A stretch of 64,000 nt of DNA from a virus. Taxonomy: Duplodnaviria; Caudoviricetes. Every line of letters starts with the position of its first letter. Within the stretch, counting starts at the first letter, position 1. The DNA is taken from positions 32,001 through 96,000 of IMG/VR virus record IMGVR_UViG_2811995030_000001, one strand, 5' to 3'. Shown here piece after piece: positions 31,811 through 59,355 of this stretch. The notes under the pieces were generated by a model. The model was not told the DNA's origin, did not search any database, and saw only the letters and a program-made list of their open reading frames with translations. The position numbers and the translations under genes were made by a program.

Positions 31811-31921
31811 TGAAAAATAAATCGTATTATATTCTTGATACTAGTGAGTTATTACAATTAACATCTTGATGCTCTAGTTTACTTAAAAGTATTATTTTAC
31901 AGAAACTTAAGGAGTGATTTC

Positions 31922-32056
31922 ATGTACAATAATAACGAAAAGTCTACACATGAAGAAGACGGACTCTCTACAGCTAAAGGAATCATAAACGGCCTACAAA
32001 TGGGAATAGCTCTATGGATTTTAATTATCATGGCCATTAAGTTAATCTTTCTATAA
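31922..32056 (+). CDS. Small membrane peptide (44 aa)
   Basis: AAGGAG RBS; hydrophobic C-terminal helix. Confidence 0.55.
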   Translation: MYNNNEKSTHEEDGLSTAKGIINGLQMGIALWILIIMAIKLIFL

Positions 32057-32085
32057 ATAAAATAAAATATAACGAGGTGTAAAAG

Positions 32086-32304
32086 ATGATTCCTAACAAA
32101 ATTAAAATAGTTTCTAATTGTCCTCACACTGGTCAAGATGGGCTTTTACCTGAAGTCATAGGGAAAGTATTTAGTGTTGCATATTATGAGCCTCACACAA
32201 AAGAAGCAAGCGTTTATAGTGAAGCCTATAAGGGAGTTATTTCTCTTAATGAAAAGGAATATGAAATTGTTAGCCGATATGTAGTAGAATATAACTCAAA
32301 GTAA
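32086..32304 (+). CDS. Hypothetical protein
   Basis: GAGGTG RBS; co-oriented with the array. Confidence 0.7.
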   Translation: MIPNKIKIVSNCPHTGQDGLLPEVIGKVFSVAYYEPHTKEASVYSEAYKGVISLNEKEYEIVSRYVVEYNSK

Positions 32305-32341
32305 AGTAACAATTTTACACGAATAAAAGGGAGGGTTATAT

Positions 32342-32767
32342 ATGAGGGAATATAGAATTTTTTATGGGATAAATGATGAGAAGAAAGAATATGAAGAAAC
32401 TATGGTATTTGAAAAGGAATACGAGGCAGAATTATTTGCTCGCAGGTTGGCGTATGAAGAATATAAGAAGAGCACAGGGGCAGAAGAAGACTTATCATTT
32501 CTTTATGGTGAATTTAATAGTATTGGTATATTTTCAGTCGAATGTGTAGAAGATGAGGAGTTTGAAAAGGCTACTAGAAAATGTCCATGTTGTGGCGAAG
32601 ATGTACATTTTGAAAATGGAGAATTAAAATCTGAAAATCGTCAAAGTAGCTATGATAGTGATTATGGATATAGTACTGAAAAAATTCAGTTTATAGGCAG
32701 ATATACGGAAAATGTGACGGCTTCAAAATGTGAAAATTGTAATTATATAATGTTATTTGCTGATTAA
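32342..32767 (+). CDS. Hypothetical protein with C-terminal Zn ribbon
   Basis: GGGAGG RBS; CPCC...CENC. Confidence 0.75.
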   Translation: MREYRIFYGINDEKKEYEETMVFEKEYEAELFARRLAYEEYKKSTGAEEDLSFLYGEFNSIGIFSVECVEDEEFEKATRKCPCCGEDVHFENGELKSENRQSSYDSDYGYSTEKIQFIGRYTENVTASKCENCNYIMLFAD

Positions 32768-32802
32768 GTAATCATGTTATACTAATCTTAACAATAAAAG
32801 GA

Positions 32803-33132
32803 GTGGAAAGCATGGAGGATATTTTAAAACAAATACTTGAAAAGGTTTCTAAAATTGAAAATGGATTAGATACAGTTAAGGATGATGTTAATTCATTAAA
32901 GCAAGGTCAACAAGAGTCAAAAGAATTTCTTTCAGCTCTAAAAGAAGGTCAAGAACTAGCAAACGCTAAACTTACAGCACTTGAAGAAACAATGAACAAA
33001 GGATTTGATAACGTTCATTTCCGTCTTGATCGTTTAGAAAGAAGAGTAAAGATGATTGATATAGATTTAGATGAAATGTATGAACAAGCTAAGCAAAACC
33101 GAAAAGATATAGACAGATTATTAAGAAATTAA
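32803..33132 (+). CDS. Coiled-coil hypothetical protein
   Basis: Heptad pattern; AAGGAG RBS. Confidence 0.7.
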   Translation: MESMEDILKQILEKVSKIENGLDTVKDDVNSLKQGQQESKEFLSALKEGQELANAKLTALEETMNKGFDNVHFRLDRLERRVKMIDIDLDEMYEQAKQNRKDIDRLLRN

Positions 33133-33240
33133 AGCCTACAATACGTGGGCTTCTTTCTGCATTTGAGGAGGTGGTTAGATTGGAGTAGATGGAATGTTTA
33201 TAAATTAAATCAATTACATTATAATAAGGAGTGGTATTGA

Positions 33241-33648
33241 ATGAAAGTATTGTCAAAATTAGAAAATACAAAAATGAAAGCATATATAATGATTTTAGAA
33301 GTCTATCCTAATTTACTGCCTAAAATTGAATATGAGGTATCGGAGGAATTAGAAGAACTGCTAAAACAATTAGAAATAAATGAAAAAGCTACAACCTTAT
33401 ATAATCCTCTTCAAAAAACAATATTCTTACTAGCTCACAATTATACTGTTGATGATTTATTATGGGGAATAGGAAGTGCTATTCATGAACAATTATTTAA
33501 TAGTAAAAAAGTAATTCTTCCTAAAGGAATTAAGTTTCCAGAAGCATTTGCGAAAAGTGTAGATCAAACTTTCTTTTATCAAGGTGGAATGAGTGCTGAT
33601 GCTTCAATATTAAAGAAAATGTTAGAAGATAAGCTAAAAGAGAAATAG
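33241..33648 (+). CDS. Hypothetical protein
   Basis: 135 aa; AAGGAG RBS; contains AIHEQ. Confidence 0.7.
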   Translation: MKVLSKLENTKMKAYIMILEVYPNLLPKIEYEVSEELEELLKQLEINEKATTLYNPLQKTIFLLAHNYTVDDLLWGIGSAIHEQLFNSKKVILPKGIKFPEAFAKSVDQTFFYQGGMSADASILKKMLEDKLKEK

Positions 33649-33668
33649 TAAGTATAAGAGGTGTTACC

Positions 33669-37713: not shown

Positions 37714-38145
37714 GTGCTGATAATGGGCATTAAAAGTATGGAAGTTAAAACTTTTGAAGATGTAGGTTTCCATTATGTGAAAGCGTTTATTAAGCACATA
37801 TCAGAAAATTTATTTGACCTTAAAGTCAACGCAACTGAATTGTTAGAGGAAAATAAAGAAGTAAATGAAGAACATATTGAACAAGAAAACAAAGTGATTG
37901 TCATGAAAAAAGTAGTGGATGACGTACATATTATAAGCATTGATCTACATAATAAACTATTCGGTTCTCTAGTTATCTACGGTGAATTCCAAGGGTTAAA
38001 TATGGTTGGAGATATTAAAGCTTCTTATGAGCCAATACATGAACATGTAACACTGATTGATTTAATTGTTGACTTTGAGGAAGAGTATGAAATTATTCAA
38101 GAGTTAAATAAAAAGGAGATAAAACTCATTAAATTTCTAACTTAA
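37714..38145 (+). CDS. Hypothetical protein, divergent from the XRE gene
   Basis: GGAGG RBS; TTGACA/TATAGT promoter near 37631. Confidence 0.7.
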   Translation: MLIMGIKSMEVKTFEDVGFHYVKAFIKHISENLFDLKVNATELLEENKEVNEEHIEQENKVIVMKKVVDDVHIISIDLHNKLFGSLVIYGEFQGLNMVGDIKASYEPIHEHVTLIDLIVDFEEEYEIIQELNKKEIKLIKFLT

Positions 38146-38165
38146 TAACAAAAATAAATTACTTA

Positions 38166-38194
38166 TTGATAAATTACAAAAGAACAAGTATAAT
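38166..38194 (+). promoter_or_regulatory. SigA promoter with upstream AAATAAATTAC motif
   Basis: TTGATA-17 bp-TATAAT. Confidence 0.65.
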
Positions 38195-38264
38195 AGGCTT
38201 ATAGAAGAAAATGGGTTACTATACTAAATAAGGAGGATATTGAACGGTAAAGGAGAGGCTGCTT

Positions 38265-38483
38265 ATGATGAAAAAGGTTAGGATTCCAAACAGAGATATA
38301 TACGGTTACATAATAGGAGTTAAAAAGGTAAAAGTAAATTGGAGATGTCCTTATTGTGGGGAGAAGATGGGAGAAACAAAACCATACACTTTCTACGAAA
38401 AAGGAAAGAGATACACAATAGATATTTGGTATAATAAATGCGGTCATGCAGTAAAACATCATGATCTAGAAATTATTAAATAG
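38265..38483 (+). CDS. Small Zn-finger protein
   Basis: WRCPYCG...CGH; AAGGAGAGG RBS. Confidence 0.75.
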   Translation: MMKKVRIPNRDIYGYIIGVKKVKVNWRCPYCGEKMGETKPYTFYEKGKRYTIDIWYNKCGHAVKHHDLEIIK

Positions 38484-38514
38484 AAGTCTAATCTTATACA
38501 AGGAGTGATTTTAC

Positions 38515-38661
38515 ATGAATAAAGAAGAAAAAGAAATAGTTAAGTATGATGATAAATGGTGGATGTTAGAAAAAGTATCTGATAACAATATGGCCACTAT
38601 TTGGAGAAATGGGCAATCTGCAATAGTATCTATAACTGAAGTGGTGAGAAAAAGTAAATAG
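38515..38661 (+). CDS. Small hypothetical protein (48 aa)
   Basis: AAGGAG RBS; MNKEEKEIVKYDDKWW... Confidence 0.6.
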   Translation: MNKEEKEIVKYDDKWWMLEKVSDNNMATIWRNGQSAIVSITEVVRKSK

Positions 38662-38695
38662 AATTCTAATTCTACACAGAAAGGGCTGATAAGAA

Positions 38696-38887
38696 TTGAA
38701 TGAAATGTTTTGGCTGCATCAGTATGCATTCTATTTAGACAATCAGATAAGCTTATTGCGAGAAGAGAGAAAGCTCACTAATTTAAGAACAGAACAGGCT
38801 GAGGATGTAATTGAATGTTTATCTAAAAATAAAATTGATATGGAATATGTAAATGCAGAGCAAGTAAATTTAATACTAATTAATTAA
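38696..38887 (+). CDS. Hypothetical protein
   Basis: ORF track; co-oriented. Confidence 0.55.
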   Translation: MNEMFWLHQYAFYLDNQISLLREERKLTNLRTEQAEDVIECLSKNKIDMEYVNAEQVNLILIN

Positions 38888-38921
38888 AAGGTTGATTTTA
38901 CATTGATAAGGAGGGAAATTA

Positions 38922-39188
38922 ATGGAAGTCGGTGAATGGGTAAAAGTTAATAATAAAATGGGATTCATTGTTTACAAAAATCACCTAGAGACTTCAATAA
39001 AAGTTAAATTTGGACTTAAAAATAGTGAAGTATTTTCTAAAGATCAGTTATCATTTACTGATAATCAGTTATTAAAGGAAGATATTCATACTTTGCAATT
39101 ATTAGCCTTGGAGACAAATGACAAAGATTGGTTTGAGGAGTTAGGAAGATTAAAAATGAAGGGAGTTGGGATAAATGGGAAGATATAG
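38922..39188 (+). CDS. IDEAL-domain protein
   Basis: C-terminal LALETNDKDWFEEL. Confidence 0.7.
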   Translation: MEVGEWVKVNNKMGFIVYKNHLETSIKVKFGLKNSEVFSKDQLSFTDNQLLKEDIHTLQLLALETNDKDWFEELGRLKMKGVGINGKI

Positions 39189-39378
39189 ATTTGAACCAGA
39201 TCAGGAATTAAAAGAGCTACTTAAAAAAGCGCAATTAGAATTAAAAGAAATTACTTCAGTTTTACAAGGGGATAAATCAATAGATAGTAAAGATGAATTT
39301 AATGACTTCTTTGATAAGATGAGAGATTATGAAGATTTAGCTCATGACATATTAGTGAAAGCAAATGATTGTTGGTAG
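39175..39378 (+). CDS. Hypothetical protein
   Basis: GGGAG RBS; overlaps the previous gene. Confidence 0.65.
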   Translation: MGRYRFEPDQELKELLKKAQLELKEITSVLQGDKSIDSKDEFNDFFDKMRDYEDLAHDILVKANDCW

Positions 39379-39909
39379 TAATTTAAATAAATGTTCTATT
39401 TTCTACAGAAGGGAGGAACATGTGTATGAATATAGGTGATAAAGTTCTTTTTTACTCTGGAATTCATCAAAACTTTATTGAGGGTGTAATTATTAGCTCT
39501 AGATTTGAGACGTATGGTATTGACACAGGAATGAGTGTGGTGATTTATAAGCATAAAGATGAATTACGAAAAGTATAGATAAAATCCTATTCTGCAAAAA
39601 GGAGAGGTGTTATGAGAATATTTACAACAATGTGCAGGAATAAAGAGTGTAAGCACAAGGAATTAAAAATTTTCCCTATCAGAGATTGTGAAAAATGTGG
39701 TGGGAAATGTGATGTTTACGTCTTTAGGTAGAGCTATGATTACATATAAGGAGAGATGATATGGACGATTGTAAGCATGAAAGCATTGAGAAAAACTCGT
39801 ATCCAATTTCTCATTATGGTGCATGGAAAGTGGTGACAGTAGAGCAGTGTGAAGATTGTGGAGAGATTCTTAATGAAGAGTCAAAGGAACTATAAAAAGG
39901 AGAGATGAT

Positions 39910-40182
39910 ATGATTTTAAAAGTATTTAAAACAGAAAATAAAATAGAGCGAGATAAAACAATGGATGAATTGAATGAATGGGGAGCGAAAGTTTTTAACG
40001 ATGCATACAAATACTATTCAGATTTAGCGAGAAATGAGAATGAAAATGTGTTTAAGATATTTGATGACTGGTGGAAAGGTAAATGCGTTTCTACTGAAGA
40101 ATATATGAGTAAGCATACAAAAGAAAATAATGACTTAGCATACGGAATTATTATGACAGCTATTTCAAATGGATTTGGATGA
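39910..40182 (+). CDS. Hypothetical protein
   Basis: AAGGAGAG RBS. Confidence 0.7.
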   Translation: MILKVFKTENKIERDKTMDELNEWGAKVFNDAYKYYSDLARNENENVFKIFDDWWKGKCVSTEEYMSKHTKENNDLAYGIIMTAISNGFG

Positions 40183-40405
40183 TATAATTAAATTAAAAAG
40201 GAAGAAGGAGATATTAATGAAAAAGCCTCAAACAAGTTTAGCAGATTTAATAAAGGTTGAGCGTGAAAAGAAATTAGAGGAGTATAGAAATTCATCTGAT
40301 AAAGATGTTAACCATTACTATAAGCCGAACACTACTTTAGCTGAGAGATTAGGAGTAAAAGAAGATGAGTTAGTTATTAATGAAGATGAAGAGGAGGACG
40401 ATTAA
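40169..40405 (+). CDS. Hypothetical protein (start may be the internal ATG near 40217)
   Basis: AAGGAG precedes MKKPQ. Confidence 0.6.
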   Translation: MDLDDIIKLKRKKEILMKKPQTSLADLIKVEREKKLEEYRNSSDKDVNHYYKPNTTLAERLGVKEDELVINEDEEEDD

Positions 40406-40480
40406 TCCTTTTCTCTTCATTCTGTAAAATACCGATTTTAAATAAAATAAAATACGTAAAAAGAGGGAGAAGAAGCAACA

Positions 40481-40819
40481 TTGACGTTAATGAATGAAGG
40501 GAATACGGGAATTCTTAAAGAAATGAGTAAACTTTTGAAGGAAATCGAGATACAAAAAGCAGGACTTAATAAATTAAGCGCTGAAATACAGGAAAGTATG
40601 GATAAGTTTAAGGTTGAGATTAAAGAAAATATGAGTAATTTTAGGACGGAAACTAATAAAGGTATGAATAATTCACAAAATAGTATGAGTGAGGAGTTTC
40701 AACAACTTAATATTAAAGTTGATAAGCTACAAACTGATATGTTAACAGAAATGAAAAAGATCAATGACAAGATTGCTGAGCAGAATAGTTTATTGAGTAT
40801 TAAATTATTTGGTAAATAG
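40481..40819 (+). CDS. Coiled-coil hypothetical protein
   Basis: Heptad-rich; GGGAG RBS. Confidence 0.65.
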   Translation: MTLMNEGNTGILKEMSKLLKEIEIQKAGLNKLSAEIQESMDKFKVEIKENMSNFRTETNKGMNNSQNSMSEEFQQLNIKVDKLQTDMLTEMKKINDKIAEQNSLLSIKLFGK

Positions 40820-40834
40820 GGGAGGAAGATTAAT

Positions 40835-41275
40835 ATGGGATTCGATATTTATTTTGAAGAGAAGCTCTTACATGTTACTCATGAGTTCATGGATTTTATT
40901 AGTTGTGGCGATAATGAATGTTATTTCGGAAGGAATAGAGAGAATTATGATGAAGAGGGATTCGCAATCTCAGGTGATAGCCATCTAGAAAACTCAACGG
41001 ATTTATTGGGACTTGTAAAGGAAGCTAAAAAACATGGGTTAGAAGTTCAGCTTATTGAAGATAAATCATTTGATTGGAGAACCGCTCTGTACATAAAGAA
41101 ATCTGTAGAACAAATAGAGCAAAAATATCGGATAGTCTACAAGAATTTAAAGTTGAATAAAATGTACGATATAAAATGTGTTGATAAAGTATATGAGACA
41201 ATAAAGAAAATGGAAGACAAAGGTGAAGTGCAGATTATAGTTGACGAGCGAAAGGAGTTAGGAGTCAGTCAATAG
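40835..41275 (+). CDS. Hypothetical protein
   Basis: GGGAGG RBS. Confidence 0.75.
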   Translation: MGFDIYFEEKLLHVTHEFMDFISCGDNECYFGRNRENYDEEGFAISGDSHLENSTDLLGLVKEAKKHGLEVQLIEDKSFDWRTALYIKKSVEQIEQKYRIVYKNLKLNKMYDIKCVDKVYETIKKMEDKGEVQIIVDERKELGVSQ

Positions 41276-41619
41276 ATTATAGAAAATGTCAGGTTTCTAT
41301 AAGATTAGGAGGGAATTAATGAACTATAAAGAATTACAAATTATCAAGCATTCACTACAAAAGTATATTAAAAGACCAGAAACAACAGAGAAAGAGGTTA
41401 CAGAAGAAAAAGGTTACTGAATAAAGTTAAAGTTATAGAGGAAGTTAATAGAATGAAAGAAGCATATGACATTAAATAAGATAGGGAGCTGTTTAAAATG
41501 GATAAATACGAATTAAGATATTTTTGCTCAAGATGCAAAGTAGAATATGACGATGTTGAAGAAGCTATTGATTGTTGTATAGAAGTTGTAAAATTAAAAC
41601 AATATTACGAGGAGGAAGA

Positions 41620-41802
41620 GTGATGGGGAAAGAATATATTTTAATTTTTGATAACAAAGAAAAAGAATATGTAGAAGATTATAATATAGGGACTAAGCAT
41701 GTCACAGTAGGTTTTAGAAAATACAATGCATTAAAATTTGTTGATCGTTCTGTTGCAGAATATGTAGCTGAAGTAATGGGCTGCAAGGTGGAGGCTATTT
41801 AG
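41620..41802 (+). CDS. Hypothetical protein
   Basis: GGAGG RBS before GTG/ATG at 41620. Confidence 0.6.
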   Translation: MMGKEYILIFDNKEKEYVEDYNIGTKHVTVGFRKYNALKFVDRSVAEYVAEVMGCKVEAI

Positions 41803-41852
41803 ATAAATTGTCAAATTTATTTAAAAGTTTATCAAGGAAAGGAGATTGTTTA

Positions 41853-42509
41853 TTGGAAGGTAAACAATGCAAGAGTTGTTTAGAATATAAAAAACTTGAA
41901 TATTTTTATGCTCAAAAAAGAAAGAGTAAAAAGAAAGGCGAGTACATGTATTATCCTCCAGAATGTAGGGAATGTACCAAAGATAGGTTTACAAGGTGGA
42001 GAAAAGAAAACGTCATATATTACAGAGCCTATATTAGACAGAGACATAAACGACAGGAAAACAAAGACTCAACTAGGAGAAGTAATGAAGAAAGAAGAAG
42101 AAATGGGAAGTATAAAGAATGGCAGCAAAACAATAGAGAAAAAATGAAAGAATATCATGAAAACAGAGCAATGAACAAAACTCATAATATAACAAAAGAT
42201 GAATGGAGAGTATGTAAAGAATATTTTGATTATAAGTGTGCCTATTGCAATATAACTGAAAATGAAGCCAAAGAGAAACAGGGAAATTATTTCCACAGAG
42301 AGCATGTGGATCACGAAGGAGCTAATGACCTATCTAATTGTGTACCAAGTTGCAAGTCTTGCAATTCGAGTAAGTATACATCTGATTTTGAACATTGGTT
42401 TAAAGAGCTGAGTGGTCTGTATACAGATGAGAAGTATAATAAAATTATTAGTTGGCTTCAAAAAGATTATAAGATGCATGTAGAAGGAGTAAAGGAGGAT
42501 TATTCATGA
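41853..42509 (+). CDS. HNH endonuclease
   Basis: N-terminal CKSC..CREC; CAYC...HREHV..GANDLSNCVPSCKSCNSSK; TTG start after AAGGAG. Confidence 0.88.
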   Translation: MEGKQCKSCLEYKKLEYFYAQKRKSKKKGEYMYYPPECRECTKDRFTRWRKENVIYYRAYIRQRHKRQENKDSTRRSNEERRRNGKYKEWQQNNREKMKEYHENRAMNKTHNITKDEWRVCKEYFDYKCAYCNITENEAKEKQGNYFHREHVDHEGANDLSNCVPSCKSCNSSKYTSDFEHWFKELSGLYTDEKYNKIISWLQKDYKMHVEGVKEDYS

Positions 42510-42654
42510 TTAAACAAAGAGAAATCAGTTGTGGGAACTGTGGGAATAAATATGATGATTGTATGGTGCTTACTTTAAGCTGTCCTGTGTGTTGTAGTAG
42601 CAAAAATCAGAACCCAAGATAAGCTTAAAACTAAATGAGTTAGGATGTGTACTT

Positions 42655-42852
42655 ATGGATAAGAAACGCATAATCAAACTAATGGACATTGAGCAAAGAG
42701 TGAATAAAGATAAGGAGCTAAAGGATAAGATTGTTGAAAAGTTTGAAAATAATCTTTCTACACGCAAATTAAATAAAGGTCGAGTACGTCCTAAAGATTC
42801 AAAAGAGGATGAAATTTTAAAGTCTTTTAAACGTAAAGATGGAGAGATATAA
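42655..42852 (+). CDS. Hypothetical basic protein
   Basis: ORF track; co-oriented. Confidence 0.55.
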   Translation: MDKKRIIKLMDIEQRVNKDKELKDKIVEKFENNLSTRKLNKGRVRPKDSKEDEILKSFKRKDGEI

Positions 42853-43277
42853 GGAGGAGGTTAAATATGCAAACAATTGAAAAAGTTGTTTTTGATGACG
42901 GATATATAATTATAAAATATACTGATGAAACTTATGCGGAAGTATATAATTACGAAGGAGTGATGCCTGTAGTGAAAACTCAGTTTTGGGAAAAATCAGA
43001 CCAGAAAAAGTGGCACAAATTAAATTTTTGTATTGATTAAGTATGAGCTGAGTAGTTCAGTGAAATGTCATTTACTTAAAATGGAGGTTAGATATGACTT
43101 GTGTACATAAGGAAATCATAATGGTTAATGCGATAGGAAGGAAGCTTGAGAGTGGCGGTCATGAAGTAGACTTTGTCATTAGGTGTCATATATGTGATGA
43201 GGAATTATTTCGTATGGGAGAGTATAGAAAGATAATACATAACTATTCAAAGCATTAAATTATAAAGGAGGCTTGCT

Positions 43278-43493
43278 ATGCTAAAGAAAGGCGATAAAGT
43301 AGTAATGCATACTTGTATGGAAGCTGAAATACATGACGGTAAGATTTGGACTTGTAGAACAGATGAATATATTCAAGGTGAAGGAGTTTATGAGCAACGA
43401 TTAGTATTCTTAGATGGGTTTGGAAGTAGCTTTCTAGTTAAGTATTTACAAAGAGTTAATTTAGAAGGGGAGAATACATATGCAAACAGTTGA
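43278..43493 (+). CDS. Hypothetical phage protein
   Basis: AAGGAGG RBS; KGDKVVMHTCMEA. Confidence 0.75.
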   Translation: MLKKGDKVVMHTCMEAEIHDGKIWTCRTDEYIQGEGVYEQRLVFLDGFGSSFLVKYLQRVNLEGENTYANS

Positions 43494-43755
43494 GTTAAGT
43501 TTAAATGACGTTTCTAAGCAGCAGTTAGAAGAAATGAAGCATGCTCTAGGTATGAGTTACAAAAGTAAACCATATCGCAATTACTTTCATGTAAATGAGC
43601 CTGATGATGATTGGGAGGACTTAGTGAATAAAGGATTTGCTAAAAGAGGTACAGGAATCAACAAAGGGACATCAACTGTATATTGGTTAACTTATGCAGC
43701 CACTAAATTAGTTTATGGAAAGAGGATTTCTGAGAAGTATTATAATGAGCTTTAA
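43480..43755 (+). CDS. Hypothetical phage protein
   Basis: MKHALG..PYRNYF..WEDLV.KGFA; GGGGAG RBS. Confidence 0.75.
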   Translation: MQTVELSLNDVSKQQLEEMKHALGMSYKSKPYRNYFHVNEPDDDWEDLVNKGFAKRGTGINKGTSTVYWLTYAATKLVYGKRISEKYYNEL

Positions 43756-43778
43756 TTAAATAATATATAAAAAGGAGA

Positions 43779-43988
43779 ATGATACATATGAAGCAGATTA
43801 GAAGCTATGAAGTGAAGGAGTTCACCTACAATAGTAAGACCTATAGAAATTATCATGTCGCTGATATGGAGCGAGAAGGATGGATTGAGAGCGGTCAAAT
43901 GAAACGCTTAAAACCTAACGTAAGTATTACGGATGCAACTAAAGATGACTATGAGTGGTATGCACATTTTCAAAGAGAAACTACATGA
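43779..43988 (+). CDS. Hypothetical protein
   Basis: AAGGAG RBS. Confidence 0.65.
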   Translation: MIHMKQIRSYEVKEFTYNSKTYRNYHVADMEREGWIESGQMKRLKPNVSITDATKDDYEWYAHFQRETT

Positions 43989-44026
43989 AATCTACTTTTC
44001 ACATAGAAATAAGGGAGGAAAATGAA

Positions 44027-44236
44027 ATGTTGAAATTAAAAAATACGATGATAGAATTTGATTATGTTAATTGGAGAGGTGAAAAGTCTAGAAGAACAGC
44101 TATGGTAGAAAATGTATGGTATGGCTCTAATGAATATCACAAAGAAGATCAATGGTTACTAGAAGCGACTGATAGAGATAAGCAAGAAATAAGGTTGTTT
44201 GCTATGAAAGATATGAGTAATATTAAGTATTGGTAA
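44027..44236 (+). CDS. Stand-alone WYL-like domain protein
   Basis: IEFDYVNWRGEKSRR...QWLLEATDRDKQEIRLFAMKDM; GGGAGG RBS. Confidence 0.7.
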   Translation: MLKLKNTMIEFDYVNWRGEKSRRTAMVENVWYGSNEYHKEDQWLLEATDRDKQEIRLFAMKDMSNIKYW

Positions 44237-44303
44237 GCTGTAAATTGCAATAAAATATCCATTTCCTATAGAAAAATAAATTAGAGAATAATTGAAAAAG
44301 TGC

Positions 44304-44332
44304 TTGCAATATCAGATACAAGAGATTATAAT
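44304..44332 (+). promoter_or_regulatory. SigA promoter with downstream AAATAAAATACAT motif
   Basis: TTGCAA-17 bp-TATAAT; motif at 44348. Confidence 0.65.
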
Positions 44333-44359
44333 TAAGTTAAATCAAACAAAATAAAATAC

Positions 44360-44626
44360 ATGAAAGGAGATAATCTTTTGTATCTTATTGAGTGGAAAGT
44401 TGATGGAAAGGTAAAAACATATGTTGCTGAAGGTTTCATTGAACGTAACGCAAAATTAAACGAACTAGAAGAACATAATCTAAACTATATAGTACATAAT
44501 GACAGCAAAGAATACAATCCTGAAACCTGTAATAAGTGTAAAAGGAATATCGACTTAACAGAAGCAGCTTATTATAAAGGAAACTGTAAAGACTGTTATA
44601 AAGAAAGCTTATTGGCCGAAGTGTGA
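44360..44626 (+). CDS. Hypothetical protein with C-terminal Zn finger
   Basis: CNKC...CKDC. Confidence 0.65.
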   Translation: MKGDNLLYLIEWKVDGKVKTYVAEGFIERNAKLNELEEHNLNYIVHNDSKEYNPETCNKCKRNIDLTEAAYYKGNCKDCYKESLLAEV

Positions 44627-44795
44627 GGAAGTGATCTAGATGGATAAGAAAAAGAAATACGACAAAGTTAAATGTAGACAATGTGGAAGGGAAATTGAAT
44701 TGAAGGAACATATCAATAGATGTAAATGCGGTGCAATAACTAAATTACTAAAGTATTGATAAAAAATTGATTTTAAATAGAGGAGGAGAAGTAGA

Positions 44796-45068
44796 ATGAA
44801 TGTAAAAAGAGAAGGGTTTGCCCTAGTTACTTTAGAAGGTGAGTATTTAACGTTTGAACAAGTCGCAGAAAGAGATATAGAAGTGTACGCTGTAGAGAAC
44901 GCAGATGAGGCTGACCTATTCAACACAGAAATGGAAGCTAATGAAATTGCATTAGATATTCTTAAAGAAAGGTCACAGTGGAATTACCTTTTAGAATCCA
45001 CTAATAATCCTGTTTCAATTGTGAAGGTAATCAAGGAATTAAAAATAGAAAAGACAAAAGAACTTTAG
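44796..45068 (+). CDS. Hypothetical protein
   Basis: GGAGGAG RBS. Confidence 0.7.
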   Translation: MNVKREGFALVTLEGEYLTFEQVAERDIEVYAVENADEADLFNTEMEANEIALDILKERSQWNYLLESTNNPVSIVKVIKELKIEKTKEL

Positions 45069-45256
45069 GTAAAAAGTTAATTTTAAATGAAATAAATTAC
45101 TCTTAGGTGGTGTGTGTATGGGGGCTGTGACATAAAGTTAATAAATTATTCATATTAGAAAGTAATTTATTAACTCAACTAACCCAATTTTTGTTAATAT
45201 GTCTTTAGGACTATTATAATAGTTCTATCACATATTTACGGAAAGAGTGGGAAGAA

Positions 45257-45928: not shown

Positions 45929-45974
45929 GTTTATATAATCTATTAAATTACTAACTATAAAAGGGGAGAATTTC

Positions 45975-46976
45975 ATGAAGAAATTAGGAGTATTTGCCGT
46001 AGCATCAGCTTTATGTTTCACTTTAACAGCTTGTGGAGATTCAGGAGAAACTAAAAATAGTGGTAATGAATCACAAGAAGAAAAAGCAAATGAGAAAAAA
46101 GATGTAAAGACGATTAAGGAAGAAGCAAAAACATATACTTATGATGAGCTTAAGGATAAAAAAGCTAAAAAAGGAGCTTCTGTTAAAATTGAAGGTAAAG
46201 TTATTACATCAGATGAAGTAGAGGATGACGATGCAGTCACTAAGTCAACTTATTTCAATGTTCAACCTAAAGAAGCAGAGGAAGATAGTTCAGATGTATT
46301 TGTAGTTAGAAATGATTCAAAAGATAAGTTTAAGATTGATGATAACGCTACGATTTATGGTACTTATGTAGGCCTTGATGAATTCTCAGATGAGCCAACT
46401 GTTGAAGCTGTATCTGTAGAGAATGAAGCTTCTGCAATGAAGAAAGATGGATGGGAAGAGACTGACGCAGGTTTTATGAAGCCTGTAGGGTACGGATATA
46501 ATGATGAAGTTGGCATAGATGGAACAGACGCACCTATAAAACCTGTGCAGTTTGGCTCTATGCAACTATATATCAAGAATATGAGTGTATATGACCTTCG
46601 ACCAAATGAAGATAGTCTATATGAATTTGATAACCAAGAGCAAGTAAGAGTAGTTTTAGTTGATATGAAAGTTAAAAATACAGCCGATCAGGATATTACA
46701 TTCTATCCAGATCAAGCGATTTTGACTACAGATACAGGGGAACAAGTGGAATCCGATTTATTAGGCGATGATTTAGGCGGTGACTTCTTAGGGAAAGTTG
46801 AAAAAGAAGGTATGGCAATGTGGGTGCTTAAAGATCATGAAAAAGAATTGAAGAATATTAAAATGATTATCTCTCCACCTTATGGAATGGATAGTATAGA
46901 AGATATTGGTCAAGAAAAACGCTTGGACTTTGAAATTTTAAATCCAAAAGATGCAAAAGAAAGGGATGCTAAATAA
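45975..46976 (+). CDS. Lipoprotein with DUF4352-like C-terminal domain
   Basis: Lipobox LTAC; acidic; VKNTADQDITFYPDQAILTTDTGEQ. Confidence 0.8.
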   Translation: MKKLGVFAVASALCFTLTACGDSGETKNSGNESQEEKANEKKDVKTIKEEAKTYTYDELKDKKAKKGASVKIEGKVITSDEVEDDDAVTKSTYFNVQPKEAEEDSSDVFVVRNDSKDKFKIDDNATIYGTYVGLDEFSDEPTVEAVSVENEASAMKKDGWEETDAGFMKPVGYGYNDEVGIDGTDAPIKPVQFGSMQLYIKNMSVYDLRPNEDSLYEFDNQEQVRVVLVDMKVKNTADQDITFYPDQAILTTDTGEQVESDLLGDDLGGDFLGKVEKEGMAMWVLKDHEKELKNIKMIISPPYGMDSIEDIGQEKRLDFEILNPKDAKERDAK

Positions 46977-49320: not shown

Positions 49321-49653
49321 ATGATTATAGATTCACCGTTGTTTAAGGATTTTCCTAAAGTTGCTTTAACTGCTGATAATTATGGCTTTACATATGAGGA
49401 TATTTCATACTTGATGGATATAGTTAGGCTTGATCCATATTGCCAACAACGCTATAGAGGTGAAGGCTCTATTGAAATTGCATTAAAGACTATCATATTT
49501 CGTTTAGACCTTAAAAAAGAAGCGTTTTATAATTTTGTATCGACTTTGCAAGCAAAAGACTATGAGGACATGGAACATTTGTCATTCTTAGTGGGGAAAT
49601 ATCATCTTGCTGAATTTGTAGCAATAGTAAATGCTTTAGGCAATGTAAAATGA
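49321..49653 (+). CDS. Hypothetical protein
   Basis: AAGGGGAG RBS. Confidence 0.7.
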   Translation: MIIDSPLFKDFPKVALTADNYGFTYEDISYLMDIVRLDPYCQQRYRGEGSIEIALKTIIFRLDLKKEAFYNFVSTLQAKDYEDMEHLSFLVGKYHLAEFVAIVNALGNVK

Positions 49654-49687
49654 GTCTTTTACACGATAATCAAGGGGGAAATATGTT

Positions 49688-50518
49688 GTGAAGAGTATCT
49701 TAAAGTGGATTCCTATAGTGGGAATCTTATTTTTTGTTGTGGGTTGCTCAGGAAAAGAAGTTCCAAAAGGGTTTAGTGAAGAAAGTTATGATGAATTTGT
49801 AAGTATATATGAAGATTTTCAGAAGGCGAAAGATAAAGAAAAGGAATATCCAACAGATAAATTGGAGTTTATAGATGAATATGCTAAGAAAGAGAAAGAT
49901 GGAGAGTTGACTAAAAAAGAAGCTATGACATTTGGAAATTTAGGGATGTTGGTATTGATCTATAATGTTCCTTTTACAGATGAAGGTTATGAGGAAAATT
50001 TAAGGAAGGTGAATGGTATAGAAGGTGTTTATGCTTCGCAAACTGTAGAAGACTATGAGAAAGAAGTCACCAATCTCTTAGGAATTGAGAATGAATCTTC
50101 AAATTCAGATAAAGGTGAGAAGAAGGAAGAGCCTGTTGAAGAGGAAGTAGCTGAAGATAATGGAGAAACAATTGCGAAAAAAGAACTGTATGCTGTTGCT
50201 TCAAATTTCCTTGAAAATTTACTTGGAGCGCCTGATCGTATAATTCCAGCAGACTATACTAATTCAGTAGTTCAGAAAAGAGAAGACGGCTTATATTATA
50301 TTTCCTCTTCATACACTGTAACAGGAACTGGAGCGCAACCTAATACGTATTATGAATATGAAATGCTTGTAGATGAACAAGGGAACTTTAAAGACGCTTA
50401 TATGCCTAACACAATAGGGAGATATAACCGTCCTATTGTTTATGATAAATTAAAAGCTGCTGGTATGATGACAGAGGAGCTAGAGGCTAAGTCCTATACA
50501 ATACCAATGGTGCAGTAA
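49688..50518 (+). CDS. Lipoprotein
   Basis: Lipobox VVGC after a hydrophobic leader. Confidence 0.8.
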   Translation: MKSILKWIPIVGILFFVVGCSGKEVPKGFSEESYDEFVSIYEDFQKAKDKEKEYPTDKLEFIDEYAKKEKDGELTKKEAMTFGNLGMLVLIYNVPFTDEGYEENLRKVNGIEGVYASQTVEDYEKEVTNLLGIENESSNSDKGEKKEEPVEEEVAEDNGETIAKKELYAVASNFLENLLGAPDRIIPADYTNSVVQKREDGLYYISSSYTVTGTGAQPNTYYEYEMLVDEQGNFKDAYMPNTIGRYNRPIVYDKLKAAGMMTEELEAKSYTIPMVQ

Positions 50519-50546
50519 TAAACTGAATAAGATACAAATTTTAACT

Positions 50547-52732: not shown

Positions 52733-53022
52733 TGATTTGGTTCATTATAGCACTATTTGGAACGTTAGTTGGGTTTGTTGGATTAGGGTTATACCTAACA
52801 ATTGAAGATGAAAAGGAGTACAGAAATGCGACTGAAACGAAAAAAGAAGCGTAAAGACTCCAGTTGGATTGAATGGGTTTTTGAACTACTTGAACCGTTA
52901 TGGTTATTGTTTCAGTGGGTCATCAAATTAATACATAGATATATTTAAACTAAAATTGGAATTTTATATAGAAATAGGGTTTCAAGAATGGCGTTAAATC
53001 AACGTTTCTAGGAGGTGCGAAA

Positions 53023-54465: not shown

Positions 54466-54707
54466 GATTTAGGATAAAAGATAGCTTATATCTAGAATTA
54501 AATATTTTTCTTGCAATTAGTTTGAAAATATGCGATAACTAAATTAAATAAATTACATAACTGGATTAAATGAATATTTCTCTTGTAAAAAAATTAAAAA
54601 TAAGATATAATCAAATTAAATAAAATACATATTAAAAATAAATTCCTTTTAGTACAGTATGGAAAGTGTGTATAAAATCAAAATTAGACATTGGGAGGTG
54701 AATATTT

Positions 54708-56153
54708 ATGTCGAATTATATCCTTACACTAAAACTAAGAACTGAAAAGTATCAGGAAGATATATTAAATAAACGTCTAGAGGTTGGAAGGCGTATATAC
54801 AACAGCATACTAGGCGACCTACTTAAACGTTATAATACCCTTAAGCAAAGCAAAGGGTATAGATTAGCTTTAAAAATGCAAAAAGGTAAAGAACGCAATA
54901 AAAAACTTAATGATCTGAATAAAGAATATGGTTTGACTGAATATTTACTTCATACACACATTAAACCGATGCAAAAGAAATTTAAGAAAAACATAGATAG
55001 CTCCACAGCGCAGAAAATTGCTACTAGATGTTTTAGCGCTTTTCAGAAATTGATGCTTCACGAGGCAGACAAATTGAATTTTAAAAAATGTGGAGAGCTA
55101 AACAGTCTAGAGGGAAAATCCAATAAAACAGGAATTAGGTTTAAAAATAACCAATTAGTTTGGAATAAATTAATAATTCCTGTAATTATAAAGAAGAATG
55201 ATATATATGCTCATACTGCATTACAAGATAATATTAAATATTGTCGTGTTGTACGTAAATTAATTGGGGGAAAGTATAAGTTTTATATTCAACTTATACT
55301 AGAAGGAATCCCTCCTAAGAAACATAACAACGAAACTGGTGAAGTTAGGCATGTTAGAAATGAAGGATCAGTTGGAATTGATATTGGCACACAGACGATT
55401 GCTATCTCCTCTCAAAAAGAAGTTAAACTATTAGAGCTTGCGCCAGAAGTGAGTATTATAGAGAAAGAGAAACGTATATTACAGCGTAAGTTGAATAGAC
55501 AACGCAGGGCAAACAATCCTCATAAGTACAATGAAAATGGGCTGATTAAGAGAGGAAATACAGGTAAGTGGATATATAGTAAAAACTATATTAAAACAAA
55601 AAATAAATTAGCTGAGTTACAAAGGAAGATTGCTGCTAAGCGTAAGCAGTCTCATGAGAAATTAGCTAATTACATCCTAACGCTTGGCGATAACATTAAA
55701 GTTGAGCAGATGAACTATCAGGGATTACAGAAGAGAGCAAAAGAAACAACTGTCAATGAGAAGACAGGTCGATTCAATAAAAAGAAAAGGTTTGGGAAGA
55801 GTTTAGAAAATAAAGCACCAGCAATGTTTCTAATAATACTAGATAATAAATTAAAATTTGATAATAAAGAGCTAAGAAAAATTAACACAACCTCATTTAA
55901 AGCAAGTCAATATAATCATTTTACTGATGAGTATGTTAAAAAGAAGTTGTCTGAACGTTGGAATAAATTTGAATGTAGTAAGATTCAGAGAGACTTATAC
56001 AGTGCATATCTGATTATGAACAGTAGATGGAACTTAAAAGAAGCTGATAGAGATTTATGCTTTGATAATTGGAACAGGTTTAAGGAGCTACATGACTTAG
56101 AGATTGAACGATTAAGAAATGAAGATAGAACGATAGCGAGTATGGGAATCTAG
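54708..56153 (+). CDS. tnpB: TnpB-family RNA-guided endonuclease, no adjacent TnpA
   Basis: RuvC I VGIDIG, RuvC II KVEQM, RuvC III QRDLYSA; KRFGKSL...APAMF. Confidence 0.9.
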   Translation: MSNYILTLKLRTEKYQEDILNKRLEVGRRIYNSILGDLLKRYNTLKQSKGYRLALKMQKGKERNKKLNDLNKEYGLTEYLLHTHIKPMQKKFKKNIDSSTAQKIATRCFSAFQKLMLHEADKLNFKKCGELNSLEGKSNKTGIRFKNNQLVWNKLIIPVIIKKNDIYAHTALQDNIKYCRVVRKLIGGKYKFYIQLILEGIPPKKHNNETGEVRHVRNEGSVGIDIGTQTIAISSQKEVKLLELAPEVSIIEKEKRILQRKLNRQRRANNPHKYNENGLIKRGNTGKWIYSKNYIKTKNKLAELQRKIAAKRKQSHEKLANYILTLGDNIKVEQMNYQGLQKRAKETTVNEKTGRFNKKKRFGKSLENKAPAMFLIILDNKLKFDNKELRKINTTSFKASQYNHFTDEYVKKKLSERWNKFECSKIQRDLYSAYLIMNSRWNLKEADRDLCFDNWNRFKELHDLEIERLRNEDRTIASMGI

Positions 56154-57008: not shown

Positions 57009-57046
57009 ATCATTCAACTTACTTTAAATTCTGAAGGAGAAAAAAT

Positions 57047-57286
57047 ATGAAAGCTTTTGAGGTACATTATCAAACACCAAGGAAGTCTACGATGGTGATT
57101 ATTTTATCTAAAACAGAAGAAGGTATTGAAAATAATTTAATTGATAGAGATGCTGAATATAAAAAATATAAGGGGAAAGTTGCAACTTGTAAAATCAACT
57201 CTCATAAGGAAATTCCTTTATCTAATGTTTTAGTTAGTCACCTATCTGTTGTTGATTTAATGAAGCTTTTAAAGGAGGAGAAATAA
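57047..57286 (+). CDS. Hypothetical protein
   Basis: AAGGAG RBS. Confidence 0.7.
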   Translation: MKAFEVHYQTPRKSTMVIILSKTEEGIENNLIDRDAEYKKYKGKVATCKINSHKEIPLSNVLVSHLSVVDLMKLLKEEK

Positions 57287-57411
57287 ATGGAAAAGAGAAT
57301 TGAATTTAAAAATGGTAGTGTAATTGAGGCTCATGATACTAAAGAAAGCATCAGAGGTAAACGCAGCAACTTTATTGAGTGGAAAGAAAAAGAAAATAAA
57401 GAGGTGAATAA

Positions 57412-57750
57412 ATGAAAAATAATTCTTTAGAATTGAATATTATCAACGATTACACGTTTGATATTGTGCCCAATGAAAAAGGAGAAATGCTCATTTACTT
57501 CAAAGTTGAAGATAAAGAATGTATTCTTCCTGTATCTCAATTGGACTTAAAGAATATGGTATGGTGCTCAGAGCAGGCATTAGATGAACCAAGTGGTTTT
57601 ACTTTGTATGAGTCAGATATAGAAGAAATGGTATCAGCTCCAGCAAGTAAGATTCCTGATTTGAAATTGGTACATGATGTAGACTTAACAGAGGAAGAAA
57701 GGATTGAGAAAGCTAGGCGCATTCTAGCCTCTCGAAAGGGAGGAATGTGA
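57412..57750 (+). CDS. Hypothetical protein
   Basis: GAGGTG RBS. Confidence 0.7.
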   Translation: MKNNSLELNIINDYTFDIVPNEKGEMLIYFKVEDKECILPVSQLDLKNMVWCSEQALDEPSGFTLYESDIEEMVSAPASKIPDLKLVHDVDLTEEERIEKARRILASRKGGM

Positions 57751-57753
57751 TGA

Positions 57754-58197
57754 ATGACAGTAGCAGTTACAACAGATCAACGAGATATGCTAATAAACAA
57801 AATTAAATTATACATAAAATGGCCTATAAGCATATTTAACAGCTTTGATACAGATGAGCTACATAACTTATATACATACATAAATGAAGGCTACACAGTG
57901 CATAAAGCAAAGGTTAGAGGTAATACAAGATCAATTACATTAAGGCTTCCTAAAGCAGTCACAGAAGAATTAGGGCTTACATATGGTGACAGGTTTAATC
58001 TAAAAGGTAATACTAGTCGAATGGTAATTTTAGAACCATACATATCAGGTAAATTGAAACTAGGTACAAGTAACACAATCAACTTTCCAGCATTGTTAGC
58101 AGCTAAACAATTACTAAAACCAGCAGATGACACTTTGATTGTAGTTAAGGATGGTCGAATATTCCTTAAGTCATTTACTTATATGCAAAGGTATTAA
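57754..58197 (+). CDS. Protein with tandem AbrB-like domains
   Basis: SITLRLPKAVTEELGLTYGD and NTINFPALL..LKPADD. Confidence 0.65.
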   Translation: MTVAVTTDQRDMLINKIKLYIKWPISIFNSFDTDELHNLYTYINEGYTVHKAKVRGNTRSITLRLPKAVTEELGLTYGDRFNLKGNTSRMVILEPYISGKLKLGTSNTINFPALLAAKQLLKPADDTLIVVKDGRIFLKSFTYMQRY

Positions 58198-58224
58198 GTA
58201 AATCAATTAGAGAGGTGATGAAAA

Positions 58225-58677
58225 TTGAATATTATTTATGATGATTATGAAGGAGATCAATTAAGTTTAATCTTAGCATTTAATGAACCTCAAGAGTTAT
58301 TTATAGGCCACTTAGAAACGCCCATGACATCAGATTCATTAGTTAAATGCCTAGAGTGGGAGAAGGGAATAACACATAATCTAATTTGCTTAAGTGATGA
58401 TTTAGAGCCACAGTCAATTAAACATTCAATGATTAATGAAGTTGTACCAGTTAAATCAATACTAGAAGAAGTTGAGAAGGAATTAGAATATAAAATCAAA
58501 TACAATTACTGGTTAAATGAAGTTAAATCTTATAGTTTTCATGAAGTCTTACATACGTTGTTGGGGATTTCCTTACTTAAAGATAAAAGAATGCAGCTAT
58601 TTACAGCAAAAGAAGTTGTTAGGGAACACTTTAGAAAGGTAATAGATACTGAAGTAAATAAAAAATGTGCTAAATGA
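58225..58677 (+). CDS. Hypothetical protein
   Basis: GAGGTG RBS. Confidence 0.7.
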   Translation: MNIIYDDYEGDQLSLILAFNEPQELFIGHLETPMTSDSLVKCLEWEKGITHNLICLSDDLEPQSIKHSMINEVVPVKSILEEVEKELEYKIKYNYWLNEVKSYSFHEVLHTLLGISLLKDKRMQLFTAKEVVREHFRKVIDTEVNKKCAK

Positions 58678-58856
58678 TAAAGGAGGAATACATAATGAAG
58701 GTTGATTATGGGATTGAGGTGTTAAGGCAGGCAAAAAGTAGCGCAGAATACATATTAAGAACTCATTGTTATGATAGTGAATCAGAGAAGGAATTAATGA
58801 TCCAGTTAGAACAGCTTGAAGCAAGTATTAAAAAATTAGGAGGAGATGAAAAATGA
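58674..58856 (+). CDS. Hypothetical protein
   Basis: AGGAGG RBS before the internal MKVD. Confidence 0.6.
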   Translation: MIKEEYIMKVDYGIEVLRQAKSSAEYILRTHCYDSESEKELMIQLEQLEASIKKLGGDEK

Positions 58857-59032
58857 GCCAGCACAATATTTTATTTAGTATCACTGAGGACAGTAGAGAT
58901 GGCGTTAACTTTCAAGTAAAGGGAAATGAAGTCAAATTTATTCTTGAACATAAAGAAGATGTTTTAGCAGTGATGGAGAGATTACAAAAAGCTTTGATTA
59001 ATGAAACTTATCCTTTCACACGATTCAAATAA
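58853..59032 (+). CDS. Hypothetical protein (59 aa), not in the ORF track
   Basis: AGGAGGAG RBS; MSQHNILFSITEDSRDG... Confidence 0.65.
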   Translation: MSQHNILFSITEDSRDGVNFQVKGNEVKFILEHKEDVLAVMERLQKALINETYPFTRFK

Positions 59033-59355
59033 AGAAAAATAAAATATTTATTACATAGAATATAGATTTTACATAATTATTAATACAACATGTAGATATA
59101 AATTAGTTTTAATCCTCTATATATAGTTGTTATTTGGTTAAAACTGCACAAATTTCAAAAAAGTTCATCCTAGATGAGCTTATTTGTGTTTTTTCCTGTT
59201 GCATTATCTATAATCACATGGTATATTATATATAACTTAAACAAATAAAATAAATTACATTACATAGTTTAAAAATAAGTAATAAAGAGTATAATATAAG
59301 TGAGCAGGTAAATTAGTGACTAACCAAATTAATAACAATTAAGGGGAGAGTTAAT

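Follow-up and report, generated by a model that had tools for sequence, protein, structure and literature searches.

The window and its sites

We analysed a window of 64,000 bp, corresponding to bases 32001-96000 of a 136,534-bp phage contig (IMG/VR record IMGVR_UViG_2811995030_000001), in which the palindromic motif TAAAA-N6-TTTTA recurs at gene boundaries. An earlier note on this DNA, made from the sequence alone, had proposed that the copies are recombination sites of an integron- or pdif-like cassette array. This idea is partly supported by our results: in phages of the SPbeta group and in one other clade, the same arms and spacer keep their place while the flanking genes are replaced, so that the sites are joints for the swap, gain and loss of cassettes, whereas the specifics of an integron or pdif array (arm covariation, a hairpin, repeated spacers) find no support.

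Judged from its genes, the window phage is SPbeta-like and far from SPbeta itself. It encodes a homologue of the SPbeta RNA polymerase YonO, an open reading frame (ORF) of 863 amino acids (aa) at 13170-15761 on the minus strand with 50% identity, and SPbeta homologues were detected for just 31 of 211 rough gene calls (blastp, E<1e-8). In megablast searches of the phage collection, window 1-16000 matched only Psychrobacillus phage Perkons, the nearest record, at 76.5% identity across part of the terminase gene, and window 38000-46000 had no match. Protein-pattern scans recovered no relative through the MrpR-like protein among viral contigs or through the YopQ-like protein among genome contigs, and the IMG/VR relatives, found through their terminase, have no usable DNA in common with window 31801-64000.

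The sites of the window and two genes that they bracket are as follows, with scores from the half-site matrix described below:

10906-10921, one-mismatch site, right arm TTTCA, in the minus-strand late operon, score 12.6
31884-31899, perfect site, spacer GTATTA, intergenic, score 22.5
32302-32317, one-mismatch site, left arm TAAAG, score 14.4 (control spacers give 0-2 at that level)
38885-38900, perfect site, spacer GGTTGA, its TAA being the stop codon of ORF 38696-38887, score 20.8
40425-40440, perfect site, spacer TACCGA, with a copy of a second, polar motif next at 40446, score 22.7
44760-44775, perfect core with a poor left flank, left border of a one-gene slot, score 11.5
44796-45068, plus strand, 90-aa ORF between two perfect sites
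45070-45085, perfect site, spacer AGTTAA, right border of slot 44796-45068, score 17.9
49646-49661, perfect site, spacer TGAGTC, upstream of a yokB-like lipoprotein gene, score 22.6
49688-50518, plus strand, yokB-like lipoprotein gene flanked by sites 49646 and 50528, 48% identical to SPbeta yokB over 118 aa
50528-50543, borderline one-mismatch site, left arm TAAGA, score 11.9
52951-52966, perfect site, spacer TTGGAA, score 18.3
54475-54490, one-mismatch site, right arm TTATA, score 13.2
59056-59071, one-mismatch site, left arm TAGAA, ~500 bp upstream of a YopP-like gene, score 17.7

The sites occupy short gaps between accessory genes, each locus with its own 6-bp spacer, and are spread over ~70 kb; the next start codon mostly lies 15-33 nt past the site. 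That they lie among accessory genes follows from the 38 genes that flank perfect sites in the genome of this phage, of which only 5 have an SPbeta homologue. The earlier claim that consecutive sites bracket single genes is borne out for the slot 44796-45068, which has perfect sites, 44760 and 45070, at its borders; in the phage collection, the 90-aa protein of this slot has distant homologues only in unrelated Bacillus siphoviruses. The SPbeta homologue of the yokB-like gene lies at the far end of its genome, where it too adjoins a site (2629).

A palindrome with a spacer of fixed length

All seven perfect copies listed in the earlier note are present where it had placed them, against a mean of 1.32 in shuffled sequences, none of which (0 of 100) gave seven. 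The whole contig holds 19 perfect copies at spacer 6 and 0-4 at each of 14 other spacers (range 0-14), and 17 of these 19 are intergenic according to rough gene calls, in a genome that is ~80% coding. With a matrix built from 38 half-sites, and the same matrix at other spacers as control, we find 33 sites at spacer 6 against 0-4 at control spacers for scores of at least 12, and 53 against 8-22 for scores of at least 8. The motif thus stands strongly above both spacing-matched and shuffled backgrounds, and a chance A/T-rich palindrome is ruled out by the shuffles, the spacer controls and the half-site matrix. We estimate the total at 33-40 sites in the genome, about a dozen of them in the window.

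One-mismatch copies are not enriched genome-wide (47 at spacer 6 versus 31-48 at spacers 3-10) and show a modest excess in intergenic DNA (23 versus 6-18 at other spacers). Among the 12 near copies that had been proposed, those at 32302, 54475 and 59056 stand and that at 50528 is borderline, whereas the rest are weak or at background: 34768, 38481, 39388 and 53970 score 8.5-9.1, a range with only a partial excess over controls, and 44251, 47371, 48031 and 48929 score -6.1 to 6.4, which is background level. The reverse near copy at 10906 in the minus-strand operon is also supported by its score. By contrast, the supposed copies with compensating arm changes score 4.5 (38659), 7.6 (41804) and 9.2 (43986) and belong to a class that is not enriched in the contig (12 compensated arm pairs at spacer 6 versus 10-22 at other spacers).

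A dyad-symmetric site in duplex DNA

TAAAA-N6-TTTTA is the invariant core of a dyad-symmetric duplex-DNA site of ~26 bp. The half-site reads yTAnrTAAAAk, with counts among the 38 half-sites of T24/C11, T22/A12, A23, n and G17/A12 ahead of the core and T19/G12 at the first spacer base; per arm, 5 bp are invariant, while 5 further bp and one spacer base are merely biased. The centres of the half-sites lie about one helical turn apart. The description of the motif as polar survives only in part, because the palindrome reaches symmetrically into both flanks (yTAnr...ynTAr) and the main asymmetry is an A-rich right flank.

Several observations suggest that the site is read as double-stranded DNA by a dimer. 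The end bases of the spacer mirror each other, with T/G at the left end and A/C at the right, also in combinations that do not pair, such as G..A and T..C. In Perkons, the four arm combinations of T[AG]AAA-N6-TTT[TC]A occur 8, 7, 5 and 6 times at spacer 6, versus 0-1 at spacers 5, 7 and 8, and the arms therefore vary independently; neither these combinations nor the compensated pairs of the contig reveal any arm covariation. With 5-nt flanks, the seven perfect window sites fold at only 0 to -3.3 kcal/mol (z -1.0 to +0.65, RNA parameters), which indicates no hairpin, and together with the absent covariation these folds lead us to reject an RNA hairpin or processing signal. Nor do the sites resemble an intrinsic terminator, in which a G+C-rich stem precedes a run of T: their arms consist of A and T alone, with folding energies close to zero. 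The single Rfam match of the window lies away from the sites. In the SPbeta record, copies 2629 and 116415 fall within features annotated just 'stem_loop', so that the site family is not annotated as such.

Conservation across SPbeta-like phages

The motif is a hallmark of the whole SPbeta-like phage family, being enriched in 16 of 17 genomes or fragments from Bacillus, Geobacillus, Psychrobacillus and Staphylococcus phages. In SPbeta there are 34 perfect copies, 29 of them intergenic, versus 0-3 at other spacers in the range 3-10, and its one-mismatch copies are in little excess, the arms being nearly all-or-none. We counted 8 copies in a 41-kb part of Perkons (0-1 at other spacers), 15 in a 41-kb part of Geobacillus virus E3 (0-2) and 7 in a 32-kb part of Staphylococcus phage SPbeta-like (1-2). 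Nine of the ten IMG/VR records retrieved through the terminase also exceed their control, which is the same pattern read backwards: five proviruses hold 24-28 copies versus 0-3, and the other five records 36, 10, 8, 7 and 2 versus 3, 2, 2, 0 and 2, respectively. The exception, with 2 versus 2, is a 22-kb fragment, and the six near-complete records of SPbeta size give 24-36 versus 0-3.

Placement is also similar among these phages. The left arm T[AG]A supplies the stop codon of the upstream gene, as had been noticed in the window, at 6 of the 24 T[AG]AAA-N6-TTT[TC]A sites of the window phage, 10 of 36 in SPbeta, 10 of 26 in Perkons and 6 of 22 in E3. Most sites lie in the early region; those of SPbeta are found in early and late operons, upstream of the aimR promoter and other promoters, and between convergent genes.

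At the junction after the yosR-like gene, a site is present in both the window phage and SPbeta, with different spacers. The window phage has one spacer in common with SPbeta (TTGGAA) and one with E3 (TTAGCT), which by our estimate is about what chance would give. Downstream of the yomM-like integrase gene (67% identity), the spacer is GAGGGG in the contig (25843, outside the window) and GAGGGA in SPbeta (39886); this pair may reflect a spacer conserved across a deep divergence, or chance.

A text search in four notations, which covered main texts only and did not include Lazarevic et al. 1999, did not find the motif, and the searched passages of an SPbeta review and of the Goettingen comparative paper do not mention it. 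As far as these literature searches reach, the motif is undescribed.

Sites as mosaic joints in relatives

We compared SPbeta 82000-101000 with the matching regions (12-20 kb) of Goe13, Goe11, SPbetaL4, phi3T, SPbetaL2 and SPR. In these SPbeta-group phages, the breakpoints of gene replacement and of gain or loss fall at sites, as the recombination-site idea had predicted. Relative to the site start, the starts of high-scoring segment pairs (HSPs) cluster at -2..0 and their ends at +16/+17, which means that blocks of homology begin or end with the whole site, spacer included. A breakpoint occurs at 53 of 56 junctions with a site versus 105 of 191 without; the contrast is weak for gaps of 20-60 bp (18/20 versus 20/28) and more evident for those of 61-150 bp (23/24 versus 30/57) and above 150 bp (12/12 versus 14/40). 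Sites explain 115 of the 578 pairwise HSP ends, versus 8.9 expected if ends were uniform in intergenic DNA.

Spacers follow the position of the site and not its neighbours. They are identical in 17 of 20 site pairs in which only the left flank is alike and in 30 of 31 in which only the right flank is; moreover, 43 pairs share a spacer although both flanks are unlike, with ~0.3 expected by chance. The site with spacer GATGCA, present in all seven phages, has several unrelated left and right flanks in different combinations. Sites are collinear in all the phages, and the slots between them hold up to five contents in five phages. In a gapped comparison of flanks, each of the nine shared-spacer junctions carries two or more mutually unrelated alleles on one or both flanks, (alleles-1) adding up to 33. 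Whole sites account for 45 of 105 single-copy identity islands (at least 16 bp, unrelated flanks) and for 45 of the 71 intergenic ones. No spacer recurs within any of the seven regions (whole genomes were not tabulated), and thus no cassette there is flanked by identical sites. The annotated regions compared include Gad1 genes.

SPbeta and phi3Ts provide an independent, genome-wide pair. There, 21 of the 34 SPbeta sites recur in phi3Ts with spacer and order unchanged; one flank is homologous at 7 of the 21 and neither at 5, so that 12 lie at homology breaks. The left flanks of SPbeta site 87599 and phi3Ts site 80190 match, whereas the spacer of 80190 is that of the next SPbeta site, 88400, a pattern indicating gain or loss of a cassette bounded by two sites. 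In the other clade, which is more divergent, homology between G004 and G005 breaks at the left edge of a shared site, and in G005 versus G010 this site is inside a 37-bp island; a second shared site has both flanks alike.

Candidate proteins

Downstream of the last listed site, the window encodes two candidate proteins and their neighbours:

59562-60611, plus strand, YopP-like tyrosine recombinase (PF00589, PF13495, PF02899), candidate binder or catalyst
60811-62193, plus strand, YopQ-like DndB-family protein, member of the conserved yopP-yopQ-mrpR trio
62190-63218, plus strand, MrpR homologue of the master repressor family (PF22822, PF22823)
63573-63779, minus strand, Cro/C1-type helix-turn-helix (HTH) protein in the position of SPbeta yopS (PF13443, PF01381; synteny), alternative candidate binder

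The first three correspond to the yopP-yopQ-yopR(mrpR) trio of SPbeta, and the YopP-like gene lies beside YopQ and MrpR in all five phages inspected. Residues R171, K198, H259, H285 and Y294 of the YopP-like protein are invariant in these five, and residue 262 is R in three and K in two; the window protein has the full set (R171, K198, H259, R262, H285, Y294), its cognate role being that of a candidate. In a profile of four YopP sequences, the HxxR..H..Y block aligns with the integron integrase IntI4, the closest match of solved structure, and with a XerC-like recombinase, XerA and XerD being also among the listed matches. With its catalytic residues intact, the YopP-like recombinase is a candidate actor on the sites, and for a dyad whose half-sites are one turn apart the Cro/C1-type protein is just as ordinary a candidate.

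In the parts of two sources that deal with it, SPbeta integration is attributed to SprA, yopP has no reported function, and yopP is listed among the core genes probably transcribed in the lysogen (PMC10516654; bioRxiv 2021.11.22.469490). According to the relevant passages of the first, MrpR has a recombinase fold, has lost catalysis and is a purely DNA-binding repressor that binds SPBRE, all ten peaks detected by chromatin affinity purification sequencing (ChAP-seq) being at SPBRE (PMC10516654). Of the two proteins that had been named as actors, that at 59562 therefore remains a candidate, whereas that at 62190 is a homologue of MrpR, whose SPbeta relative binds SPBRE. SPBRE itself can be discarded as the identity of our motif, since it is a different sequence, common to 9 of 10 MrpR-bound upstream regions in SPbeta.

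The YopP-like protein encoded at 59562-60611 occurs in identical form on five recorded contigs, the longest of 4.87 Mb, which implies that the window phage also occurs as a prophage in a bacterial chromosome. Its nearest homologues, at 55% and 35% identity, are recorded under Priestia and Metabacillus.

How cassettes may be exchanged

We favour, with a probability of roughly 0.55, exchange by recombination confined to the short identical core of protein-bound dyad joints. A dimeric phage protein most likely reads the duplex site, and relatives residing in the same cell would recombine within its identical core of 16-20 bp, by short-homology recombination that the bound protein possibly stimulates. 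Locus-specific spacers would keep such exchange in register and prevent deletions within a genome, and the bound protein probably has a regulatory or architectural role as well. In this scheme, we infer the protein binding, the exchange mechanism and the extension to the window phage.

Several points weigh against it. The counts from the seven-phage comparison repeat related genomes in a hypervariable region, and the sites account for a minority of homology breakpoints; a related A-rich motif also recurs in SPbeta-group phages, likewise as identity islands. Between SPbeta and phi3Ts, both flanks are homologous at 9 of the 21 shared sites, a strict edge test places only 2 of 68 HSP ends at sites (null mean 0.52, maximum 4), which is not significant alone, and looser windows capture ~6-7 of 76. 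In three laboratory phi3Ts-SPbeta hybrids, the parent switches fall inside parent-identical blocks, 6 of the 7 intervals being 1.4-18 kb long, so that crossovers are not placeable at sites; the narrow 40-bp interval contains no site, and some block edges lie within a few bases of one, for example at both ends of the 1.4-kb block of Hyb2. A role in expression is hinted at by the regular spacing between the site and the start codon that follows. Finally, because no relative shares the DNA of the cassette region, the joint function in the window phage is deduced from its family.

The strongest competitor, which we nonetheless consider rather unlikely, is conservative site-specific recombination, in which the YopP-like enzyme would bind the inverted arms and exchange strands across the 6-bp spacer, between like spacers only, so that relatives in one cell would swap cassettes in register. 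Tyrosine-recombinase core sites have arms of ~9-13 bp and a spacer of 6-8 bp, and the present sites fit in having inverted arms and a spacer fixed at 6 within a dyad of ~26 bp, but only 5 bp per arm are strongly conserved. An available enzyme is suggested by the conserved yopP-YopQ-MrpR trio, the catalytic residues in place, the alignment to IntI4 and XerC-like proteins and the use of another enzyme, SprA, for SPbeta integration; yet Arg262 is Lys in SPbeta, which has 34 sites, and in the Staphylococcus phage, and the neighbouring paralogue MrpR is described in the relevant part of its report as having lost catalysis (PMC10516654). The nearly all-or-none arms of SPbeta (34 perfect) and the spacers kept when one or both flanks are replaced are as this enzyme-based exchange would have them, whereas the spacers that differ in 3 of 20 left-flank-only pairs and the gain or loss at SPbeta 87599/88400, which joins sites with unlike spacers, are not, and short-homology recombination predicts the same comparative pattern. 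Were YopP to act on 20-40 heterospecific sites per genome, SPbeta-like phages would possess a natural spacer-addressed cassette exchange, by which related phages and prophages would trade accessory genes slot by slot, anti-defence genes included, with gene order left intact, a proposal that we put forward only tentatively.

It is improbable that the sites are purely regulatory operators, at which a repressor or roadblock would silence or time gene arrays without any part in exchange, like the stoperators of phage L5; in that case they would pass for joints simply because most gene boundaries carry a conserved site. The dyad symmetry with half-site centres about one turn apart, the regular 15-33 nt to start codons, the occurrence of SPbeta sites in operons of both the early and the late class and ahead of the aimR promoter, and the Cro/C1-type HTH proteins encoded in the window would all suit such operators. 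They leave unexplained, however, why a locus-specific spacer persists although both flanks are exchanged (5 of 21 sites between SPbeta and phi3Ts; 43 pairs versus ~0.3) and why sites are the main class of intergenic identity islands; moreover, they predict that alignments halt at the first arm, yet these run through the spacer.

We give very little credence to integron-like attC sites, acting as folded single strands through which cassettes enter and leave as circles. Cassette-sized units do lie between sites, IntI4 is the closest solved structure to the YopP profile, and in one gain or loss a left arm has become joined to the spacer and right arm of a different site; but there is neither arm covariation nor a stable hairpin, none of the seven regions has a repeated spacer, we see no attI-plus-promoter platform, and slots hold genes with their own promoters, some on the opposite strand.

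An RNA element, such as an intercistronic hairpin for processing, stability or translational coupling, would suit sites that are transcribed and lie between the stop codon of one gene and the ribosome-binding site of the next, but is hardly credible given that the sites fold no better than shuffles, show no covariation, have no Rfam match and in SPbeta also lie upstream of promoters and between convergent genes. Equally implausible is a promoter for the phage RNA polymerase (the YonO homologue at 13170-15761, minus strand) or another phage-directed polymerase: the window encodes that enzyme and the motif precedes many genes, yet the early region holds most of the sites, symmetry is unusual in a promoter, and the SPbeta gap holding the YonO start has no perfect site, on which ground we reject a YonO promoter, this polymerase using a single transcription start, in the late operon, in SPbeta according to the part of the report concerned (PMC5467207).

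Comparison with known systems

Xer/dif sites, including the pdif sites of Acinetobacter plasmids, have inverted arms, one of XerC type and one of XerD type, around a 6-bp spacer, with modules between sites. The present sites share with them the inverted arms, the 6-bp spacer and a Xer/IntI-like recombinase gene in the same genome, but their arms are identical, with 5 bp per arm strongly conserved, their spacers are locus-specific and the link to the recombinase is that of a candidate. Integron attC arrays are likewise cassette arrays parted by palindromic sites, and a tyrosine recombinase with IntI-like similarity is encoded here; unlike them, the present array has no folded-strand signature, covariation, attI/Pc platform or repeated spacers in the regions compared. 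Engineered heterospecific lox/FRT cassette exchange offers another parallel, with the same arms, unlike spacers, pairing of like spacers only and swap in register, although that system is man-made and enzyme action at the present sites is a candidate role.

The stoperators of mycobacteriophage L5 are asymmetric and orientation-dependent and have one common sequence. The likeness lies in the tens of repressor-type sites in short intergenic gaps and in both operons of a temperate phage; to our knowledge, stoperators have not been reported as mosaic joints. SPBRE is also a repeated intergenic element of SPbeta-like phages whose binder, MrpR, has a recombinase fold and is encoded in the same operon as YopP (PMC10516654), but it is another sequence, of 15 bp, with ~10 promoter-associated copies, whereas our motif occurs 34 times in SPbeta and mainly where two genes meet.

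The closest theme is that of the PeSLs of T4-type phages. In the relevant parts of their description, these consist of a sigma70-like promoter and a terminator stem-loop flanking small non-essential genes in hyperplastic regions, and copies alike within a genome allow nearby ones to recombine into mini-circles and drive modular shuffling among relatives (Arbiol et al. 2010, PMC2839356). In the SPbeta group and the second clade, too, short conserved intergenic motifs bound insertions, deletions and replacements among close relatives. The present sites differ in being a dyad of 16-26 bp with no stable stem-loop, no promoter-like hexamers seen and an own spacer per locus; as they end 15-33 nt before the start codon, there would be no room downstream for a promoter and leader (no promoter scan was made). 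They are best read as extending the theme of a conserved intergenic motif that mediates modular shuffling, with locus-specific spacers serving as addresses being new.

SPbeta has been a model phage for 50 years, and anti-defence genes are currently being drawn from its relatives. The junction element gives a base-level account of where mosaic joints are positioned and suggests a role for yopP, and its conserved sites offer landmarks by which variable slots could be delimited and compared, or landing pads for engineering. If the exchange is enzyme-catalysed, it would constitute a new kind of phage gene-exchange system.

Other features of the window

A second intergenic motif, AATAAA[AT]TAC, usually followed by AT, is truly polar. 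The contig has 36 copies, 31 of them intergenic; in the window they occur for example at 855, 6013, 9477 and 16067 on the minus strand and at 26896, 38153, 40446, 44350, 51837, 52291, 54547, 54619, 56693, 59249 and 63272 on the plus strand. The minus strand carries all six copies below 48.1 kb, and the plus strand 27 of the 30 beyond 58 kb, which shows that this motif follows gene direction. Its copies either precede the ribosome-binding site by a few bases or adjoin sigmaA-like -35/-10 pairs on their upstream side. The motif may be the counterpart of SPBRE in the window phage, or an element of UP type, and some of the polarity that the earlier note ascribed to the palindrome may be due to it.

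Other elements lie in the first half of the window. A tubulin/FtsZ-family protein of 376 aa (16645-17775, plus strand; PF00091, E 9e-12) may be a TubZ/PhuZ-like cytoskeletal or partition protein. A skipping-rope RNA (Rfam RF02924, 50.1 bits versus a gathering score of 36.7) at 11755-11853 on the minus strand is placed between an HU-like gene (11983-12261) and the genes downstream of the latter. In SPbeta, the part of the YonO report that concerns this same region describes an unannotated non-coding RNA at the YonO transcription start (PMC5467207). The stretch 23500-26100 includes ~2.5 kb nearly without ORFs of at least 50 aa and has neither a tRNA nor an Rfam match; its GC skew is reversed (-0.31 at 24001-26000) inside a plus-strand region. 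Further on, a 481-aa ORF (54708-56153, plus strand) has a weak match to OrfB_IS605 (TnpB-like), with an E of 0.0019, below the Pfam cut-off, and Geobacillus virus E3 has several annotated IS605-type transposase genes in the same general region.

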